Under the pieces are notes generated by a model. That model did not search any database. It saw only the letters and a program-made list of their open reading frames with translations, and was not told where the DNA came from. The position numbers and the translations under genes were made by a program. Source: a virus (lineage: Duplodnaviria; Heunggongvirae; Uroviricota; Caudoviricetes). From it: 64,000 bases of DNA. The stretch is taken from positions 93,752-157,751 of IMG/VR virus record IMGVR_UViG_3300037461_000469. One strand, given 5' to 3'. This document shows, piece after piece, positions 13,252-32,185 of this stretch (position 1 is the first letter of the stretch; the number at the start of each line of letters is the position of its first letter).

Positions 13252-14616
13252 TTACAGAGCAGAGTTGCGAACGCTTACCACCGCGTAATATTTTTCTGTG
13301 TCCAAAAGTTGCGTTACGATGGCGTAACGGCTACCCAACGAGAGTAGTGGGTGGAAGTCATGTGGCGAGATGGTCTTCATCATCATCACTGGGATGTATG
13401 GGCAATAGAGGATACCTGAGTCGAAACTCTTCTTTCCCTTGTAACCCATCAAGATGTAACCAACCTCTTTGTCTACGTTGTTTGCAGGTGCTTCCCAATA
13501 CAGGTCAAGGTAAACCTTAACCTTACCGGATTCGATTGTACCCAAGTACACAACGCCTTCACCGCCCTCGTAAGGCTCGAAGCCATCGACAGGCTGAACT
13601 GCGCTGTAGTCAAAGGCCTTGATTGCTGACAAGATTGAAGCAACTTCCGAAGACACAACCATCCAATTTGCACGTCCTCTACGAGTCTGATGACCGATGT
13701 AGTTCAATGCTTTGACGATTGCGTGATAGAGAGTCTTGTACTTTTCTTCCTGCCAACGACCATCCGTTGAAGCCAAGTCCCAAGTGAACAAGCCATTGGT
13801 TGTACCAAGATTGTATGCGGCCAAAATCAACTCACGGTCAATCTCTGCCTGAATCTGGTACGAGAGGAAGTCAACAATTTCCTGTTCAAGATTCAACGAG
13901 TGAACCTTCTTGATGTCGTCAACTGCTTCCTGCGACCAATTTGCTTTCAACTTACGAGTGCGAGCCTCGATAAGTCTGTTGATAATTTTGAGCGAACCTT
14001 CCGAATAAGGATACACACCGCCTGTACCATCAGGTGCGTTACCGTAGGTAGCACCAGGGGTCTGCAAGATATCCGAAAGCAATTCACCGCGGTCATTTCT
14101 CAAACCGAAACCGCCTGTGTTGGCAGTTGCATCGTCTACGGCACTCTCGTAGGTTGCGTTGTTCCAATCACCCGAATAGACAGGGTTCAAATTGGTCGAA
14201 CCTGGGATGTATGCCTGAGAGTCAGCGGTTGTGGTGTACACACGCCCTGTTACGGGGTCTGTCCACGTTACGGTTGTGTCATAAACCCAACGAAGGGTAA
14301 ATGCCATACCGACTGGGCCTTCCATCGCCTGAACGCCAAAGATTTCATTGGCAATCAGTTGTGGCATGATACGGCGAACCATAGGAATCATCAACTTTGG
14401 GAACTTGTCGATGTCGCTTCCCGGTGTAGGCGAAGTGCCTGGTCCGAAGCCGTAGCCTGAAATGGTGCTTTCACGAAGGGAAGTTCGCATCTCGCCTTCT
14501 TGGTTTTCAAGAACGATTGCGGTCATGTCTCTGGTTTCGTCATTTTTAATTCCCTTCAATAGACGAGACCATTTTTCACGAAGTCTCTTTAACTTCTGTT
14601 CTCCTGTTCCGTACAT
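13252..14616 (-). CDS. Major capsid protein, T4 gp23-like
   Basis: IPMVRRIMPQLIANEIFGVQAMEGPVG, ARTRKLKANWSQE, EIDRE, RRGRAN, GYKG, YCPYIP, SRY motifs; strong terminator. Confidence 0.97.
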   Translation of the reverse strand: MYGTGEQKLKRLREKWSRLLKGIKNDETRDMTAIVLENQEGEMRTSLRESTISGYGFGPGTSPTPGSDIDKFPKLMIPMVRRIMPQLIANEIFGVQAMEGPVGMAFTLRWVYDTTVTWTDPVTGRVYTTTADSQAYIPGSTNLNPVYSGDWNNATYESAVDDATANTGGFGLRNDRGELLSDILQTPGATYGNAPDGTGGVYPYSEGSLKIINRLIEARTRKLKANWSQEAVDDIKKVHSLNLEQEIVDFLSYQIQAEIDRELILAAYNLGTTNGLFTWDLASTDGRWQEEKYKTLYHAIVKALNYIGHQTRRGRANWMVVSSEVASILSAIKAFDYSAVQPVDGFEPYEGGEGVVYLGTIESGKVKVYLDLYWEAPANNVDKEVGYILMGYKGKKSFDSGILYCPYIPVMMMKTISPHDFHPLLSLGSRYAIVTQLLDTEKYYAVVSVRNSAL

Positions 14617-26331: not shown

Positions 26332-28947
26332 TTACACTCCTAGTTTTTGCGTTACCGCTTTTTTCTTTTTGATTCGATTGACGATGTTCAACTTGCTCTT
26401 GTCAACCAACTGCGTCTTCGCTAGGAAGAGTTTGTAGTGCAAGTCCTCGTCAATCAGTTGGATTTTCTTCACCAAAAAATCCTGAAAATATTTGTCGTAA
26501 TCGATTTCGAATTTCAGGTTCAGTTCGGGGTCGTAGTGAATGATTTCTCGGTGGTCTTTGACGAACAGGATGTTCACCGTCTCGCCCCGCTTGATTGTCG
26601 TGTTGGAATTGCGGATGGCTCGGACGTGTTGAACCCCTGTGTCGTACTCTTCCATCCTCTTGCTCATCTTTTTGCGGATAACAAGGTCGATTGCCGACTG
26701 ACTCTTCAGGTCAACCTTGACCTTTTTGCAGAACGCCCTGAGTGTCTCCACGTCCCCGTAGTGGGTCAGGATGGTACTGTACAGGTTCATCAGCACCTTC
26801 TTGAAGAAAGTTGGTGTATCGTCCTTGACGGCTTCGAAGCCCTTGATGTACAGTCGCTCTTCCTTCAAGACCTTGCCTTTGAAGTACTTCAAAAATCCGA
26901 CTTGCTTTTTCTTTGCGGGAGCAAGCAGAAGTTTGGAAAACGACTTTTCGAACACGGTCTTCATAATGTGCGAGTCGAGAACCTTCCTGTTCTTGGTGAA
27001 TTTTTCCAAGAACTCAGGTAGTCCTTTGTTGAACAAATCCTGCAAGGCTTTCGACTTGTCGATGGTCTGCTCAAAACTGTCGGCTTCGATTTTGATAAAG
27101 ATGGAGTCCGTGTCTCCCGTCAAAATCCTGTAGCCCTGTTCTTCTGCGGCGTTCTTGACGTAGCGCAACGTTTCACGGGCAACGTAGGTAACGCAAGCCG
27201 CAACCCGTTGGTCGTAAAGGATAAATCCTCTGTAGCCTAGAACGCCGTACAGGGCGTTGCAAGTTGCCTTGAAGCACGATTCCATGTCGTTGACGATTTT
27301 AAACTCTTGCGAGTTCCCATCGAACTGCATTTTGCGCTGAGTAAGTTTGTCCCGTTCGTTAATCAGCAGTTGCGACAGTTGCGGAACCACACCACGCTTT
27401 TTCGTGGTGAACATGATTTTGCCGATTTTGATGTCGGTCTGCGGGTCGTAGTCCTTCAACTCTTCGATGATGGTCTCCTTCGAAAGATTGAGCGAGACCA
27501 TGATGGTCGGGTACAGGCGTGAGAAGTCGTACACCGAAACGTTTTCGAACAGCCCTGGCACGGTGTCCAACACCAACGCCCCTTCGAACGTGCTGTCCAA
27601 GTTCTGCTTGTGTTTCGAAGGGAACTTGAACTGCTTGAAGCGTTGGTGAATCAGCGTTTCCAAGAAGCGGCTGTTGAAGTAGACGTTTTCGTAGGCTTGC
27701 GGAGCAATCTTCTGATACAGCATCGGGAACTCGATAATTTTCTGCATCTGTGCGATTTTCTCGGTAAGGTAAACGTCCTGAACGTTGTACTTAATCAACT
27801 TGGTCAGGTCGTTCTCTTCCCACAACACGTCCACGCCTTCGTGTTCGATTTTCTTTTCGTTAAACAAGTGCTTGGCTACGGCATCCAACGTCCACGCAAT
27901 CGGCTTGTTCTCCACGATAATCCACTTGGCGTAACGAAGGTAGTCCCACAGGATTACTTCGTGGCAGTAGTAGGATTTTTCGCCGTCCTTGCCGATGCTC
28001 TCGTAGACTTCGGAAAGAAACGGCGTGAAGTCCACCTCCAACTTTTTGCTTCGGTGCAAGAGGTAGGGGACATCGAAGAAGTCGGCGTTCCAACCGCCTA
28101 GCAAGTCCACTTCCAACTTCGCCATCGCCGCAAAGAAGTGGGTGAGCATCTTGGCTTCGTCTTCGAACTCAAAGATTTTCTCCGTCTTGAACTGCGACTT
28201 GTCGTAGGTTTGGTCGTGTCGCTTCTTCAAAATCCACACGAAATTCTTGTCGTAGGTGTTGACGTAGGCCACGATGGAAACGATTGGCTCAGGCGTGTTG
28301 ATTGTGTCGAGCGACAGGTTCGTTTCGATGTCGAACGTGGCGTAGGTTAGCAGTCTCGTGTGGGCGATGTTCGGGTAGTTGTCGAAGTAGAACAAGTCCT
28401 TGGAGCGCAAGTGGTCTTCGTAGGTCTGCTCAAAGGTCTGATACTCTTTCGGCACTTTCTTCAACCGCTTGCCATCGTAAGAGAGGAACTCGCCGTCAGG
28501 GTCGGCAACGTACTTGATGTTCGCCTTGTGCGTGTTCCTAGCCTTGATTTTCTTGAAGTCGAGATTCCGATAAAAGTATGCCTTGTCCGTAACTCGGACG
28601 AGTGCGAAACGGGAGAAGTAGTTGTTCAACTTCTCCCGCAACTCCTTGATTTTGGTTGTGGCTTCCTTTTTCTCGGTCTTGTCGTAATCCTTGTAGTTTT
28701 TCAGAGAGACGAACATCTGCCCGTCTTGGTCTTTGAAAAACTTTCCAAAATCCTTGTCGGGGAATTTGCGGTAAAGCAAATTCGCTCCAAACAGAACAAC
28801 TAGGTTTGCGTCCAACCCTTTCGCATCAGCCTCAAAAACGTGGCTGTAGACTTGCGGGTTGAATTTTTTCAACAACTTCGTTTTGATGAAGTCATCGTTC
28901 TTCCCAAATTGTTCCTTCTCTGAAACGAAAATAATATGTTTAGACAT
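26332..28947 (-). CDS. Family B DNA polymerase with 3'-5' exonuclease (gp43 role)
   Basis: Exo DIETN, GWNADFFD, YNVQDV; Pol YDFSRLYP, KATCNALYG, GDTDS; no intein-sized insert. Confidence 0.95.
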   Translation of the reverse strand: MSKHIIFVSEKEQFGKNDDFIKTKLLKKFNPQVYSHVFEADAKGLDANLVVLFGANLLYRKFPDKDFGKFFKDQDGQMFVSLKNYKDYDKTEKKEATTKIKELREKLNNYFSRFALVRVTDKAYFYRNLDFKKIKARNTHKANIKYVADPDGEFLSYDGKRLKKVPKEYQTFEQTYEDHLRSKDLFYFDNYPNIAHTRLLTYATFDIETNLSLDTINTPEPIVSIVAYVNTYDKNFVWILKKRHDQTYDKSQFKTEKIFEFEDEAKMLTHFFAAMAKLEVDLLGGWNADFFDVPYLLHRSKKLEVDFTPFLSEVYESIGKDGEKSYYCHEVILWDYLRYAKWIIVENKPIAWTLDAVAKHLFNEKKIEHEGVDVLWEENDLTKLIKYNVQDVYLTEKIAQMQKIIEFPMLYQKIAPQAYENVYFNSRFLETLIHQRFKQFKFPSKHKQNLDSTFEGALVLDTVPGLFENVSVYDFSRLYPTIMVSLNLSKETIIEELKDYDPQTDIKIGKIMFTTKKRGVVPQLSQLLINERDKLTQRKMQFDGNSQEFKIVNDMESCFKATCNALYGVLGYRGFILYDQRVAACVTYVARETLRYVKNAAEEQGYRILTGDTDSIFIKIEADSFEQTIDKSKALQDLFNKGLPEFLEKFTKNRKVLDSHIMKTVFEKSFSKLLLAPAKKKQVGFLKYFKGKVLKEERLYIKGFEAVKDDTPTFFKKVLMNLYSTILTHYGDVETLRAFCKKVKVDLKSQSAIDLVIRKKMSKRMEEYDTGVQHVRAIRNSNTTIKRGETVNILFVKDHREIIHYDPELNLKFEIDYDKYFQDFLVKKIQLIDEDLHYKLFLAKTQLVDKSKLNIVNRIKKKKAVTQKLGV

Positions 28948-29521
28948 TTTCTAAATTTTTTCTTCTTGATGCGTAAGATGATATTGCTCGTTGTTTGGCC
29001 TTTTCAGGATGAGTTTGCCAAAATATTTGATTTTTCTCATTACGTTGTTTTAGTTTTTCAGGGTGATTTTTCCAAAATATTTTTTGTTTTTCCCCTCTAC
29101 TTTCTACTTCAATCGGATGAGTTTTATCGTAATATTTTTTTCTTTTACTTTGTTTAATTCGTTCTTCTAAATTTTTATAAAATATTTTTTTAGTTTTACT
29201 TATTTGTTGTTTCGTTATTTCGTGATGATGTTTGTTTTTTTGTCCCCCACTATCAAGATTATAACCATTGGGTGTGATTGTATTTAATTCTTTTATTAAA
29301 AAACTTTCTGTCCAATCTAAATCTTTTTCGGGACAAGAGAAGAAAATCCATTTGAAATTTTCAGTTCCATATTTTTTAATAGCACTATCAATCAAAGGAC
29401 AATATTTGTAAGTTTCGTGTTCATAAATTCTTTGTTTTAAATTTCTACTTGTTTGCCCAATATATTGTTTTCCGTTTTGTAAATTAATAACGATATAAAT
29501 AATTCCGCAATTCTTATCCAT
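28940..29521 (-). CDS. GIY-YIG homing endonuclease
   Basis: GIIYIVINLQNGKQYIGQT...R..EH...AIKKYG...GYNL; start set at the ATG after the GGGAGG RBS. Confidence 0.88.
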   Translation of the reverse strand: MDKNCGIIYIVINLQNGKQYIGQTSRNLKQRIYEHETYKYCPLIDSAIKKYGTENFKWIFFSCPEKDLDWTESFLIKELNTITPNGYNLDSGGQKNKHHHEITKQQISKTKKIFYKNLEERIKQSKRKKYYDKTHPIEVESRGEKQKIFWKNHPEKLKQRNEKNQIFWQTHPEKAKQRAISSYASRRKNLENV

Positions 29522-29525
29522 TCCA

Positions 29526-29617
29526 ACCCTCCCGTAGTCGAAAATAGTGTAGGTAATCTTGGGAAACGGGAGTTCCCAAGAAAAGGTGCTACCTTTCGTC
29601 CCTACACTATTATTTAT
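29526..29617 (-). ncRNA. Structured cis leader RNA, copy B
   Basis: Outer arms 29544-53/29601-10 (10 bp perfect); hairpin 29558-65/29573-80; loop CTCCCGT (minus) complementary to ACGGGAG at 29529-35; ATAAATA at 29611-17. Confidence 0.75.
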
Positions 29618-29843
29618 TGTCTTCAAACTGTTCTGTAGTAAAATAAAATCTGCGACAAGTGTAAGATTTAGGTAAAATTTCTTTAAAATATGAACAAGTG
29701 GAACAACAGGTACTTTTTAATTCTGGAAAATGGATTAATACAAATTCCATACCGTTGAGTTTAAAAAGACCCTTCTGCTTGGAGTCCATCTTGTCCACGA
29801 GTGGGCAAGGGTCATAAAGGCTTTCGTTTTTATTTTTAGCCAT
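29610..29843 (-). CDS. Small Cys-rich protein, possible divergent member of the adjacent paralog array
   Basis: CPLVDK...H...CCSTCSYF; own promoter motif at 29863-29873. Confidence 0.6.
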   Translation of the reverse strand: MAKNKNESLYDPCPLVDKMDSKQKGLFKLNGMEFVLIHFPELKSTCCSTCSYFKEILPKSYTCRRFYFTTEQFEDNK

Positions 29844-29863: not shown

Positions 29864-30256
29864 TTATACCACAAACGGTTGCAAAACAGCGGAACCTGCG
29901 GAAGTTCCCGATACAAGGGTGGAATATTTATAACTTGTTGGGGTGTAATAGACGGTGTAGTTATCGGTGGTAATGTCTCCCCAATACGGCCCACCGCTTG
30001 TGTTCGGCGTAGTCGTGGTGATGATGTACGGATTGGAAGGTTGATGGGGTTGGGGTTGAGGTGGCGGCGTGTACGGAATATACGTCCACGGCGTAAGCAC
30101 GGATTGGTCGAAAAATCGGCAACTCTTGCAACACCCACACAACTCATAAGCCTCGTTATTATTCTTTTCCTGATGGCCTCGGCAGATGCCGTTGCGACCA
30201 TGCAGAATGAGTTTCAGTTTTTGCTTGTCAGAAAAGGGACATCCTTTTGGAATCAT
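29864..30256 (-). CDS. Array member 6: Cys/His module plus weak MCP-like tail
   Basis: MIPKGCPFSDKQKL...LH...C...CKSC; FDQSVL..TYIPYTP weakly like MCP FDSGILYCPYIP; AGGAGG RBS. Confidence 0.75.
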   Translation of the reverse strand: MIPKGCPFSDKQKLKLILHGRNGICRGHQEKNNNEAYELCGCCKSCRFFDQSVLTPWTYIPYTPPPQPQPHQPSNPYIITTTTPNTSGGPYWGDITTDNYTVYYTPTSYKYSTLVSGTSAGSAVLQPFVV

Positions 30257-30270
30257 TTCATGGTTCCTCC

Positions 30271-30480
30271 TTATTCTATTTTTATTGGATTACTCTCACT
30301 CGTTAAGAATTTTACCCAAGACTGCATCGCTTCATCCATCATTCTGTACTCGGCTGTCCAAGCACTAGAGTATGGGCAAGTTTTACAACGCAAAGGGTCA
30401 GCACCAAGAATGTTACATTTCCCCTTCAGGGTTGCTTCTAATTTTCCTTTGTTGTTCAGCAGACAAGTTTTAGGTATCAT
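30271..30480 (-). CDS. Array member 5: Cys module plus weak MCP-like tail
   Basis: MIPKTCLLNNKGKL...C...CKTC; SAWTAE...WVKFLTSE weakly like MCP ANWSQE...IVDFLSYQ; ATGA-coupled. Confidence 0.75.
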   Translation of the reverse strand: MIPKTCLLNNKGKLEATLKGKCNILGADPLRCKTCPYSSAWTAEYRMMDEAMQSWVKFLTSESNPIKIE

Positions 30481-30914
30481 ATTTTAAATATATCCCAAAT
30501 CCTTTTCCAAATGCTCGGCTTGGGTTTAACAACAGGCTTGGTTTCTTCAAGGTCATCTACTATCATCCAAGTAGGTGATATGCCGTTGTAGGCATTACTG
30601 TTAAGATTTAAAGAATGGGTGTGCATGGGCATCGATGTTTGACCTGACCAATAAGGAGAGGCGGCACTTGCTCCAGGTAATCCTAGTTGCGACCCACGCA
30701 TCGGTATATTCGGATTTGCTTGAATTGCTGCCATTAAATTCCCATACAACAGGTCGTGTTTCCTCTGCCGTTCTTCAAGAATCTGACAACCCGCACAATC
30801 ACAATCAAGGGCTGAATTTTGTGCTTCTTCTCTCATCAGAAATACGAAACAGTCGTGATGAAGGGTAGCCCACAACTTGTATTTATCACTTAGCGGACAT
30901 TTTTTTCCTAACAT
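30477..30914 (-). CDS. Array member 4: Cys/His module plus weak MCP-like segment
   Basis: MLGKKCPLSDKYKL...LHHDC...CAGC; RKHDLLYGNLMAA weakly like MCP EKYKTLYHAIVKA. Confidence 0.75.
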   Translation of the reverse strand: MLGKKCPLSDKYKLWATLHHDCFVFLMREEAQNSALDCDCAGCQILEERQRKHDLLYGNLMAAIQANPNIPMRGSQLGLPGASAASPYWSGQTSMPMHTHSLNLNSNAYNGISPTWMIVDDLEETKPVVKPKPSIWKRIWDIFKI

Positions 30915-31170
30915 TTTTCTTCCCTTTATAAACCCATTTCATTTTAAATATCGTTCCTACTGGACCCGCCATTGGCTGAACGTTGAAAATATCGTTGGCT
31001 ATCAGTTTCGGAATGGCTCTTCGTACAGCGGGGATTTTGAATTTGAGAGAGTAAGGACACTTCGCACAACATTCTTTCTCTCCGAAATGCTCTGCGGAGT
31101 ATTTGCAATCTCCGTGCATCGTTACGTAAAACTTGTCTCTGTCGCTGAGTGGGCATCCTTTGTTTATCAT
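30886..31170 (-). CDS. Array member 3: Cys/His module plus MCP residues 77-112 (Gol region)
   Basis: MINKGCPLSDRDKF...MHGDC...CAKC; IPAVRRAIPKLIANDIFNVQPMAGPVGTIFKMKWVY is 23/36 identical to this phage's MCP. Confidence 0.85.
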   Translation of the reverse strand: MINKGCPLSDRDKFYVTMHGDCKYSAEHFGEKECCAKCPYSLKFKIPAVRRAIPKLIANDIFNVQPMAGPVGTIFKMKWVYKGKKNVRKKMSAK

Positions 31171-31361
31171 TCTACTGCCCTTCTTATAAATTCGTTATCA
31201 ATTTCCTTTGCCAACTCTTCGCTCATTATTTTAACAAGTTCATCTTCTAGATTAAGGCTACATCCCTTTAAACAATTAGGATGGGTATGAAGGGTACACT
31301 CGTGGTGAAGGATTACGTAGAGTTTGTCTTTGTCGCTGAGAGGACAGTCTTTGCGAATCAT
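31167..31361 (-). CDS. Array member 2: Cys/His module plus MCP residues 240-267
   Basis: Start at MIRKDCPLSDKDKL (ATGA overlap at 31358-31361); SLNLEDELVKIMSEELAKEIDNEFIRRA is 14/28 identical to MCP. Confidence 0.82.
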   Translation of the reverse strand: MIRKDCPLSDKDKLYVILHHECTLHTHPNCLKGCSLNLEDELVKIMSEELAKEIDNEFIRRAVE

Positions 31362-31576
31362 TTTTTTGCCTTCATAATTTGAATCGGGATGTATGGAGTA
31401 TAAAATACTCCCGCATCCATAATATTTGCGAGAAAAGAACATCCATCACAACGGTGTCCTTTAGGCCAAACTGAAGAGTCAAGGCTATCCCATCCTTTTG
31501 TATAACCCCGACAACTATTGTGTAGGATTGACCATAGTTTTTCTTTATTACCAAAGGGACACGTCTTGGGTATCAT
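31358..31576 (-). CDS. Array member 1: Cys/His module plus MCP residues 399-414
   Basis: MIPKTCPFGNKEKL...LHNSC...CDGC; DAGVFYTPYIPIQIMK is 9/16 identical to MCP; ATGA-coupled to gp62-like gene. Confidence 0.82.
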   Translation of the reverse strand: MIPKTCPFGNKEKLWSILHNSCRGYTKGWDSLDSSVWPKGHRCDGCSFLANIMDAGVFYTPYIPIQIMKAKK

Positions 31577-31947
31577 TCATACCTCTGTTTAATCTCCTTC
31601 TTCTCTTCCTTCGTCAGCAACTCGGCGTAATCTTTCGCAACCTTCGTAGAAACTTTATAAACTTTCTTCAAATATTCAACCTCTATCAAGTTTACTTCCT
31701 TCGTCTTGGTTGACTTTATCCACCCTTTCGGATAGACCCCTTTGTAGAGGATGCAGAACAATTTGTACTGCGCTTCCTTCGGCAAACTCCAAAGCACATT
31801 CAGCAGATTGGCATACTTCTCGTACCCTGCGTAGTAGTAGAGCCGATTGAGTAAGTACGGCTGGAACTCCTTCATTTCGTCAGGGTTCAACGGTTCGCCC
31901 TGTTGAATCTGCTTTGTGAACCGAAAAGGGCTATTCGTGTTTTCCAT
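31573..31947 (-). CDS. Clamp loader small subunit, T4 gp62-like
   Basis: FQPYLLNR...AN.LN...QY...W.K...Y.VS.K.A..Y..LLT.E pattern; lies downstream of gp44-like. Confidence 0.75.
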   Translation of the reverse strand: MENTNSPFRFTKQIQQGEPLNPDEMKEFQPYLLNRLYYYAGYEKYANLLNVLWSLPKEAQYKLFCILYKGVYPKGWIKSTKTKEVNLIEVEYLKKVYKVSTKVAKDYAELLTKEEKKEIKQRYE

Positions 31948-32185
31948 TCCTACCTAATTTTATCACACGCACTTTGTAATCCTCAATCGTGCGCTCCCTG
32001 TTCTCAGGGGCGTAATAAAATTCAACGAAAGCCTGACAACCTGGGCAGATGCCGTGAAAATTGTTGACTTCGTTAAAGTTTACGATGTCGAAAGAACCTT
32101 CGCCGTCCTTCGTCTGAAATTGTGAGATTAACTGATTACAGGTAGGGCAGTTGATTTGAAAATTGACGTAATTATAAACACCCAT
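31931..32185 (-). CDS. Small Zn-finger phage protein
   Basis: MGVYNYV...CPTC...FQTKD...CPGC. Confidence 0.6.
   Translation of the reverse strand: MGVYNYVNFQINCPTCNQLISQFQTKDGEGSFDIVNFNEVNNFHGICPGCQAFVEFYYAPENRERTIEDYKVRVIKLGRNGKHE

Follow-up and report, generated by a model that had tools for sequence, protein, structure and literature searches.

The gene at positions 30886-31170 of the stretch analysed here, hereafter P0002, is a selected but dispensable small early-region gene of a T4-like phage, and it is best read as encoding a small accessory protein in which a four-cysteine module presents, as a flexible tail, a diverged equivalent of the Gol segment of the major capsid protein (MCP). 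As for what such a protein would do, the reading that we prefer, with a probability of about 40%, is that it acts in trans as an early mimic, competing for a host reader of this capsid segment. The phage is uncultured and comes from a wetland, and the 64,000-nt stretch (the window) corresponds to positions 93,752-157,751 of IMG/VR record IMGVR_UViG_3300037461_000469. An earlier note on this DNA had proposed that the Gol region was excised into a stand-alone gene; this part of the proposal is well founded, as the gene is separate and selected, with orthologues, purifying selection and a conserved position, while the particular closeness to T4 that accompanied it did not survive comparison with the phage's own MCP (see below).

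Architecture of the gene

P0002 consists of a cysteine-containing N-terminal module, a capsid-derived block and a short basic tail, and it is one of several module-bearing genes that lie side by side in the window (Table 1).

Table 1. Positions in the window of P0002 and its parts, of the other array members and their clamp-loader neighbour, and of the MCP gene.
Feature	Position	Strand	Description
Whole gene m3 (P0002)	30886..31170	(-)	ATG start, 94 aa; putative zinc-type module, capsid Gol-equivalent block and basic tail
N-terminal module, residues 1-41	31048..31170	(-)	M-I-x-K-x-C-P-L-S-D-K-x-K-L...C...C-x-x-C; Cys C6, C22, C35 and C38 invariant
Capsid-derived block, residues 43-81	30928..31044	(-)	Equivalent to own MCP 74-112 and T4 gp23 ~93-131 (Gol 94-122 inside)
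Basic C-terminal tail, residues 82-94 and stop	30886..30927	(-)	Final 29 nt overlap the start of m4
m1	31358..31576	(-)	Module and tail like MCP 399-415 (YxPYIP strand); Pfam Gp23 positions 311-330
m2	31167..31361	(-)	Module and tail like MCP 241-268 (EIDRE helix); Pfam Gp23 positions 168-194
m4	30477..30914	(-)	Module and 100-aa tail; orthologue in L002; no family match
m5	30271..30480	(-)	Module and short helical tail, ending IKIE
m6	29864..30256	(-)	Module and Pro/Thr-rich tail
gp62-like small clamp-loader subunit	31573..31947	(-)	PHROG 225 clamp loader, E 1.3e-15; translationally coupled to the array
Own MCP	13252-14616	(-)	454 aa; Pfam Gp23 E 3.6e-81, profile positions 2-353
Donor-type segment, MCP residues 74-112	14281..14397	(-)	Hardly varies among 17 MCPs of the clade (overall identity 63-100%)

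The tail alone matches the Pfam family Gp23 (PF07068; E 4.4e-11, 43 bits with a cut-off of 24.4) at positions 9-48 of the 376 in the profile, and this was the sole family found in a Pfam scan of P0002. With 94 aa and these positions only, the protein does not have the full HK97-type fold that the family represents. When IMG/VR was scanned with P0002 alone as query, no relatives were recovered, and a scan with the alignment of Gol-type proteins returned MCP genes only. Prediction of a complex between P0002 and its own MCP gave a score of 0.01 in a single run, which counts neither for nor against binding.

Relation to the capsid protein and to T4 Gol

The match between the tail and MCP residues 77-112 on which the earlier note was based was borne out (P0002 residues 46-81, 23/36 identical), and BLASTP aligned residues 43-81 with MCP 74-112 without gaps (24/39, E 4e-16). 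The sequence of T4 Gol given in that note also proved correct: in a HMMER alignment to the T4 gp23* chains of the PDB (5vf3/8gmo) it occupies mature residues 29-57, that is, 94-122 of the full-length protein. The P0002 block is homologous to this peptide, with 17 of 29 residues identical in an ungapped alignment to gp23*. The idea that the fragment resembles T4 Gol more than the phage's own MCP does has to be given up, however. The fragment shares 17 residues of the 29-mer with T4 and the MCP 15, but over 42 residues the count is 20 for both; two orthologues of P0002 have 15 and 16 identities to the 29-mer, and the extra likeness of the fragment to T4 is within noise. Scored with the Gp23 profile, the MCP segment reaches 50.6 bits, compared with 42.6 bits for the fragment, and the same order is seen in all four blocks, namely the Gol block and three further capsid blocks that sister genes carry. 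As the MCP scores higher in all of them, we reject the possibility that the fragments keep family-consensus residues lost by the phage's own MCP and would thus be aimed at other phages.

The own MCP is at best ~33% identical to the MCPs of phages in GenBank, those of cyanophages being the nearest. Among 120 MCPs, the fragment was closest to those of its own clade (24-26/39, versus 21/39 for the consensus of the next group). Clade-specific residues (LIAN.IF and K/RWVY) are common to the fragment and the MCPs of this clade, and therefore the donor was the phage's own MCP lineage; T4 or another clade is ruled out as donor by the same residues. At the nucleotide level, the fragment and the MCP segment are 64% identical, with a longest exact match of 9 nt and both on the same strand, which excludes a silent gene-conversion cassette, an antisense function or another role at the DNA level.

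Position in the genome

The array sits in the block of clamp, clamp-loader and polymerase genes. The start of m1 and the end of the gp62-like gene share 4 nt, and m2 overlaps each of its neighbours to the same extent. This gp62-like neighbour is the same in three other contigs (L007, L010, L059) and in the relative G006, with overlaps of 4-8 nt. In L007-L009 the Gol-type gene is the sole member of the module family at the gp62-adjacent site, L010 has three members there, headed by this gene, and a 239-kb contig carries it at the same place. The T4-type late promoter TATAAATA is not enriched, and the array has no clear promoter or terminator; gene order points to early expression of P0002. The tails of m4, m5 and m6, as well as a GLPNG group of tails, gave no significant match to the MCP in profile-profile comparisons.

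The site recalls that of T4 RegA, whose gene lies between genes 62 and 43; the analogy with P0002 is one of position only, as P0002 has no match to PF01818. A search for this family throughout the genome was empty, and its control was likewise silent; a search of the phage for a Lit-type protease had the same outcome, again with a silent control.

Other small genes share this neighbourhood. A 77-aa Cys-rich protein (window 29610-29843, minus strand) is encoded directly upstream of the DNA polymerase in all relatives examined (L007, L010, L059), and it is not detected by the profile of the four-cysteine module. An 84-aa zinc-ribbon protein with CxxC...CxxC (window 31931-32185, minus strand) is encoded just upstream of the gp62-like gene and is conserved in L007, L059 and G006. 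The DNA polymerase of the 239-kb relative (L059:10469-14098) is 1209 aa long and has a faint LAGLIDADG match, which suggests that it carries an intein or an endonuclease insertion.

Selection and turnover

Three metagenomic orthologues with 75, 60 and 68% identity have the same layout as P0002, and two of them sit in syntenic arrays (L001, L002). In comparisons of orthologue pairs, dN/dS was 0.09-0.26 on the capsid-derived codons, with dS of ~1-1.9, and 0.15-0.31 across the whole gene. No synonymous differences between orthologues are found in the stretch where the end of P0002 overlaps m4, because the last 29 nt are also coding for the start of that gene. An alignment of the ten-member Gol-type subfamily keeps a core, P..LIA.D.F.VQPM..P, that lies inside the T4 Gol 29-mer. 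Taken together, these patterns mark P0002 as a real gene.

The gene is nevertheless dispensable. P0002 and m4 are missing from a complete IMG/VR genome of 222,974 bp with terminal repeats (G006, IMGVR_UViG_3300037851_000345), the MCP of which is 99% identical to that of our phage. Window positions 30504-31253 have no counterpart there (cf. G006:C1 92900-93100), the deletion taking m3, m4 and the tail of m2. G006 is also without the GIY-YIG gene of window 28940-29626, and between m6 and m7 it carries other small genes amounting to ~2 kb.

The protein also changes quickly. In phages whose DNA polymerases are 76-79% identical to that of our phage, the Gol-type proteins are only 41-48% identical, while the corresponding segment is nearly invariant among MCPs down to 63% identity. 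That the tails track the MCP of their own phage is not supported, since in relatives at this same level of polymerase identity they end in KYKY, where the clade has RWVY. Turnover and rate together follow the pattern of an accessory gene that would be under diversifying pressure, with its functional core conserved. One Gol-type orthologue (P0005, from Logan SRR13394437) has a 12-residue deletion that removes PAVRRAIPKLIAN and WVY and retains DIFGVQAM..PVG, and is thus a natural minimal variant.

The four-cysteine module family

The module belongs to a family that is undescribed. A search with the module profile, which covered 1.84 billion representatives, yielded at least 95 clusters from metagenomes of wetland and freshwater origin. 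Their members are small proteins of 57-153 aa with the module always at residue 1, and P0002 is the top match of the profile (E 1.5e-13) and a member of the family. The family motif, at the extreme N-terminus, is M-I-P-K-x-C-P-L-S-D-K-x-K-L, and the four cysteines are the only invariant residues, both in an alignment of 23 sequences (A2) and in one of 95 (A3). No Pfam or PHROG family corresponds to the module, and comparisons with Foldseek (PDB) and VIA-align (wide) gave no fold match, because the module is too small. When the 95 sequences were supplied to AF2, residues 1-40 were modelled with a pLDDT of 82-92 and the tail poorly, and with 5 sequences the model of P0002 was poor as a whole (pLDDT 46). 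The four invariant cysteines, together with this confident compact model, suggest that the module binds zinc. The module is absent from five other T4-like genomes of IMG/VR.

The genome under study (168.8 kb, ~74% complete) holds 16 copies of the module in five places. Ten of these paralogues are outside the window, at G000:C1 29332-30642, 64548-64871, 78171-78518 and 162852-163324 (L003-L006). Six of the ten form another tandem array, and two lie together between a primase-like and an Mre11-like gene. Copies of capsid segments close two of these proteins: MCP 312-333 in the member at 29332-29562, and the YxPYIP...SP.D.H stretch in that at 64548-64871.

What varies in the family is the tail. 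Pfam recognises Gp23 in 13 of the 95 tails and the C-terminal domain of the tail sheath (PF17482) in 8 of the 95. With an MCP profile trained on the clade, the Gol-equivalent block is the commonest capsid-derived tail (9 clusters), and the rest of the capsid-derived tails correspond to the region of the EIDRE helix, the YxPYIP strand or the RAN.IV strand/helix. The sheath-type tail of P0154 shares 32% identity (E 5e-10) with the C-terminal part of the sheath protein of the near-identical 223-kb phage; sheath-tailed module proteins of ~130 aa comprise P0154, P0157, P0159, P0162, P0172, P0174, P0187, P0197 and P0203. One module protein (L005:1171-1518, genome 78171-78518) has a tail of GWSGYSG repeats, matched by collagen-like Gly-X-Y repeats in two tail-fibre-like proteins of the same genome (L056, genome 1911-3098 and 4375-5577); as these are low-complexity sequences, this match may be due to chance. 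As the sister tails derive from other capsid blocks and from the sheath C-terminal domain, the logic of the family lies in pieces of virion proteins and not in EF-Tu specifically.

Free-standing capture of the Gol block

Small proteins that carry the Gol block and no module are also recovered by the profile of the Gol-type subfamily (P0226, P0227, P0229, P0230 and P0233-P0239). These module-less proteins, at least ten in number, all match the Gp23 profile at positions ~2-48 only, with the block either N- or C-terminal, and outside the module family it is joined to at least four unrelated partner architectures. The search was seeded with the Gol block, so that outside the module family the frequency of capture refers to this block only. 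The regions concerned are early ones or ones of nucleotide metabolism: one of the genes lies between those for DHFR and thymidylate synthase and near gp32 and UvsX, another adjoins thymidylate synthase, and a third lies among queuosine genes in a 361-kb scaffold. No capsid matches were found among the neighbours of the module-less genes, which are therefore not split MCP genes; a split or intron-interrupted MCP exon is likewise discarded for P0002, as the MCP of the phage is intact.

The block thus recurs in other contexts. P0233-P0238 have a recurring partner domain of ~70 aa, ending LFKL.WG/ALRWM, on either side of the block, and neither Pfam nor PHROG has a family for this domain. The Gol-equivalent block also forms the C-terminal end of a PHROG of 128-aa "major head proteins", and, as a lead only, the ESM Atlas holds three clusters of Gp23-domain proteins of 63-74 aa with 57-76 members. 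Because at least four other architectures captured it independently, the Gol region is special as a free peptide, and the block is an autonomous unit.

Possible functions

Gol is a 29-residue region of gp23, its most conserved one, and as a free peptide it binds domains II-III of EF-Tu and lets the Lit protease cut this factor (PMC3014915). The cut falls between Gly59 and Ile60 of EF-Tu. In the T4 prohead, gp23 is disordered as far as residue 105, and this N-terminal region is turned towards the scaffold, later becoming the N-arm (PMC9546572); being disordered and exposed before maturation, it is an accessible linear epitope. Sensors that are known or proposed to read abundant virion proteins include Avs7, Avs8, Dsr1 and CapRel in addition to Lit (bioRxiv 10.64898/2026.01.04.697583).

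On this background, mimicry in trans could operate as follows. The array would share its transcription with the clamp-loader and polymerase genes and be coupled to them in translation, and by analogy with T4 the protein would be made before the capsid protein. The free block would then occupy the site by which a host factor normally reads the segment in newly made, unassembled capsid protein, the factor being a Lit/EF-Tu-type abortive-infection sensor or another capsid-sensing immune protein, and with the site occupied the response would be blunted or mistimed. Both the identity of the partner and the antagonistic outcome are what we infer from the pattern as a whole. This reading is favoured by the early-region location of the gene, its dispensability and fast evolution, the recurrent capture of the block and the growing list of defences that sense capsids. 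It is further supported by the position of the conserved core inside the T4 29-mer, coupled to purifying selection on the capsid-derived tail, and by the sister tails, as capsid and sheath are abundant virion proteins of the kind that sensors are known or proposed to read.

Other points count against mimicry. In E. coli, Lit is activated by Gol as a free peptide, so that an accurate mimic could set the sensor off instead of blocking it. EF-Tu is present in amounts that no minor protein could titrate, the role of the module is left unexplained, and a role directed at assembly would account no less well for tails derived from the polymerisation domain of the sheath or from collagen-like repeats. 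As far as the paper on the EVADES catalogue shows, which has no mention of capsid, no known anti-defence protein is built like P0002.

Interference with assembly is the main rival to mimicry, although we consider it rather unlikely. The free block would bind the matching virion protein, a scaffold or a chaperone, and would cap, delay or misdirect assembly, either of the phage's own particles, as a timer or holdase, or of those of a co-infecting relative, as a form of interference competition. All identifiable tails come from virion proteins that self-assemble (capsid blocks, the sheath C-terminal domain, collagen-like fibre repeats), and small satellite proteins such as P4 Sid and SaPI CpmB are generally known to redirect capsid assembly. 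Additionally, in T4 the region in question contacts the scaffolding core in the prohead and is afterwards an inter-capsomer N-arm (PMC9546572). A required assembly factor is not compatible, however, with the loss of the gene from a phage with the same capsid protein, and a poison would hit the phage itself, the fragment being closest to the MCP of its own lineage. Moreover, these genes are located among those for replication and nucleotide metabolism and not in the head operon, and the tail evolves fast while its supposed target segment is frozen.

It is improbable that the block acts on translation without any defence system being involved, that is, that by binding EF-Tu it tunes elongation or readies translation and folding for capsid synthesis. 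Gol does bind EF-Tu-GDP and inhibits its GTPase, and it has been suggested that T4-like phages in general share the interaction between gp23 and EF-Tu (PMC3014915); the core kept by the stand-alone subfamily also falls inside the Gol 29-mer. By contrast, a stoichiometric effect of a minor early protein on one of the most abundant proteins of the cell is hard to expect, the sister tails from other capsid blocks or the sheath are left unexplained, and the gene is dispensable and fast-evolving.

Decidedly improbable, too, is a virion-targeting tag, in which the capsid or sheath piece, through co-assembly or by binding the scaffold, would load the module into or onto the particle, to be delivered to, or displayed at, the next host, in the manner of the T4 internal proteins with their capsid-targeting sequence. 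The constancy of the module next to a variable piece of structural protein would agree with such a tag, and so would the orientation of the gp23 N-terminal region, which faces the scaffold inside the T4 prohead. Nevertheless, sheath and fibres stay outside the cell, the pieces are elements of the core fold and not known docking signals, and the genes are in early regions; as the Gol block is also found at either end of other partners, whatever it does can be done without the module.

Finally, a functionless chimera, recombination debris of a shuffling array with a capsid similarity that has no role, is barely credible: array members are gained and lost and tails suffer indels (m2 is truncated in G006, and P0005 has its deletion), but the capsid-derived codons are under purifying selection while synonymous change is near saturation, orthologues with a conserved core occur in at least ten clusters, and the same block boundaries were captured independently.

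Scope and significance

A search of the literature found no paper on stand-alone Gol-like genes or on anti-defence proteins made of capsid fragments, and no description of a phage countermeasure built from copies of the trigger itself. P0002, the 16 module copies, the at least 95 related clusters and the independent fusions of the Gol block are concrete candidates for trigger mimics. The Gol block is singled out as a putative autonomous peptide ligand across very distant gp23 families, and its natural variants make the reason why gp23 binds EF-Tu amenable to experiment. If interference with assembly were the true role, the same proteins would amount to naturally occurring peptides that inhibit the assembly of capsid and sheath.

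It is possible, and we propose it as a tentative and rather doubtful generalisation, that T4-like phages have repeatedly made the Gol block and other capsid or sheath pieces into early "trigger mimics". These would form a general counter-defence class that pre-occupies or desensitises sensors of virion proteins, with the module family serving as a modular platform for display, arrayed and reshuffled in the manner of an antigen library.

Comparison with known systems

Small proteins that affect larger viral or host machineries by imitation or by binding are known from diverse systems. Sid of P4 and CpmB of SaPIs are satellite proteins that change capsid size by binding capsid or scaffold interfaces; they resemble P0002 in being small accessory proteins, but their genes belong to satellites, they do not consist of capsid-protein fragments and they have no sequence relation to P0002. 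K3L of vaccinia mimics eIF2-alpha and is a pseudosubstrate or decoy of a eukaryotic virus. As may hold for P0002, the virus carries a truncated copy of a segment that an immune effector reads, with the difference that K3L mimics a host protein, whereas here the mimicked protein is viral and the presumed trigger.

The T4 proteins Srh and Srd, which Mosig et al. reportedly described in 1998, are said to be small early proteins that resemble segments of sigma-32 and sigma-70 and were proposed to be decoys. They share with P0002 a plan in which a small early-region protein is organised around a short stretch copied from a larger one; unlike them, P0002 would mimic a virion protein of the phage itself, and it belongs to a large modular family.

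The trigger of the DSR2 defence is the tail tube protein. Some phages evade DSR2 by means of the anti-DSR2 protein DSAD1 (PMC10973363). By analogy, P0002 may work in a similar way, although DSAD1 is not derived from the tail tube and has no sequence relation to P0002.

In the system formed by T4 Gol, EF-Tu and the Lit protease of e14, the segment involved is a homologous gp23 block, and the core IP.LIA.DI..VQPM..P.G is common to both. Unlike T4 Gol, the segment is present here as a separate gene, fused to a four-cysteine module and drawn from the MCP of its own lineage.
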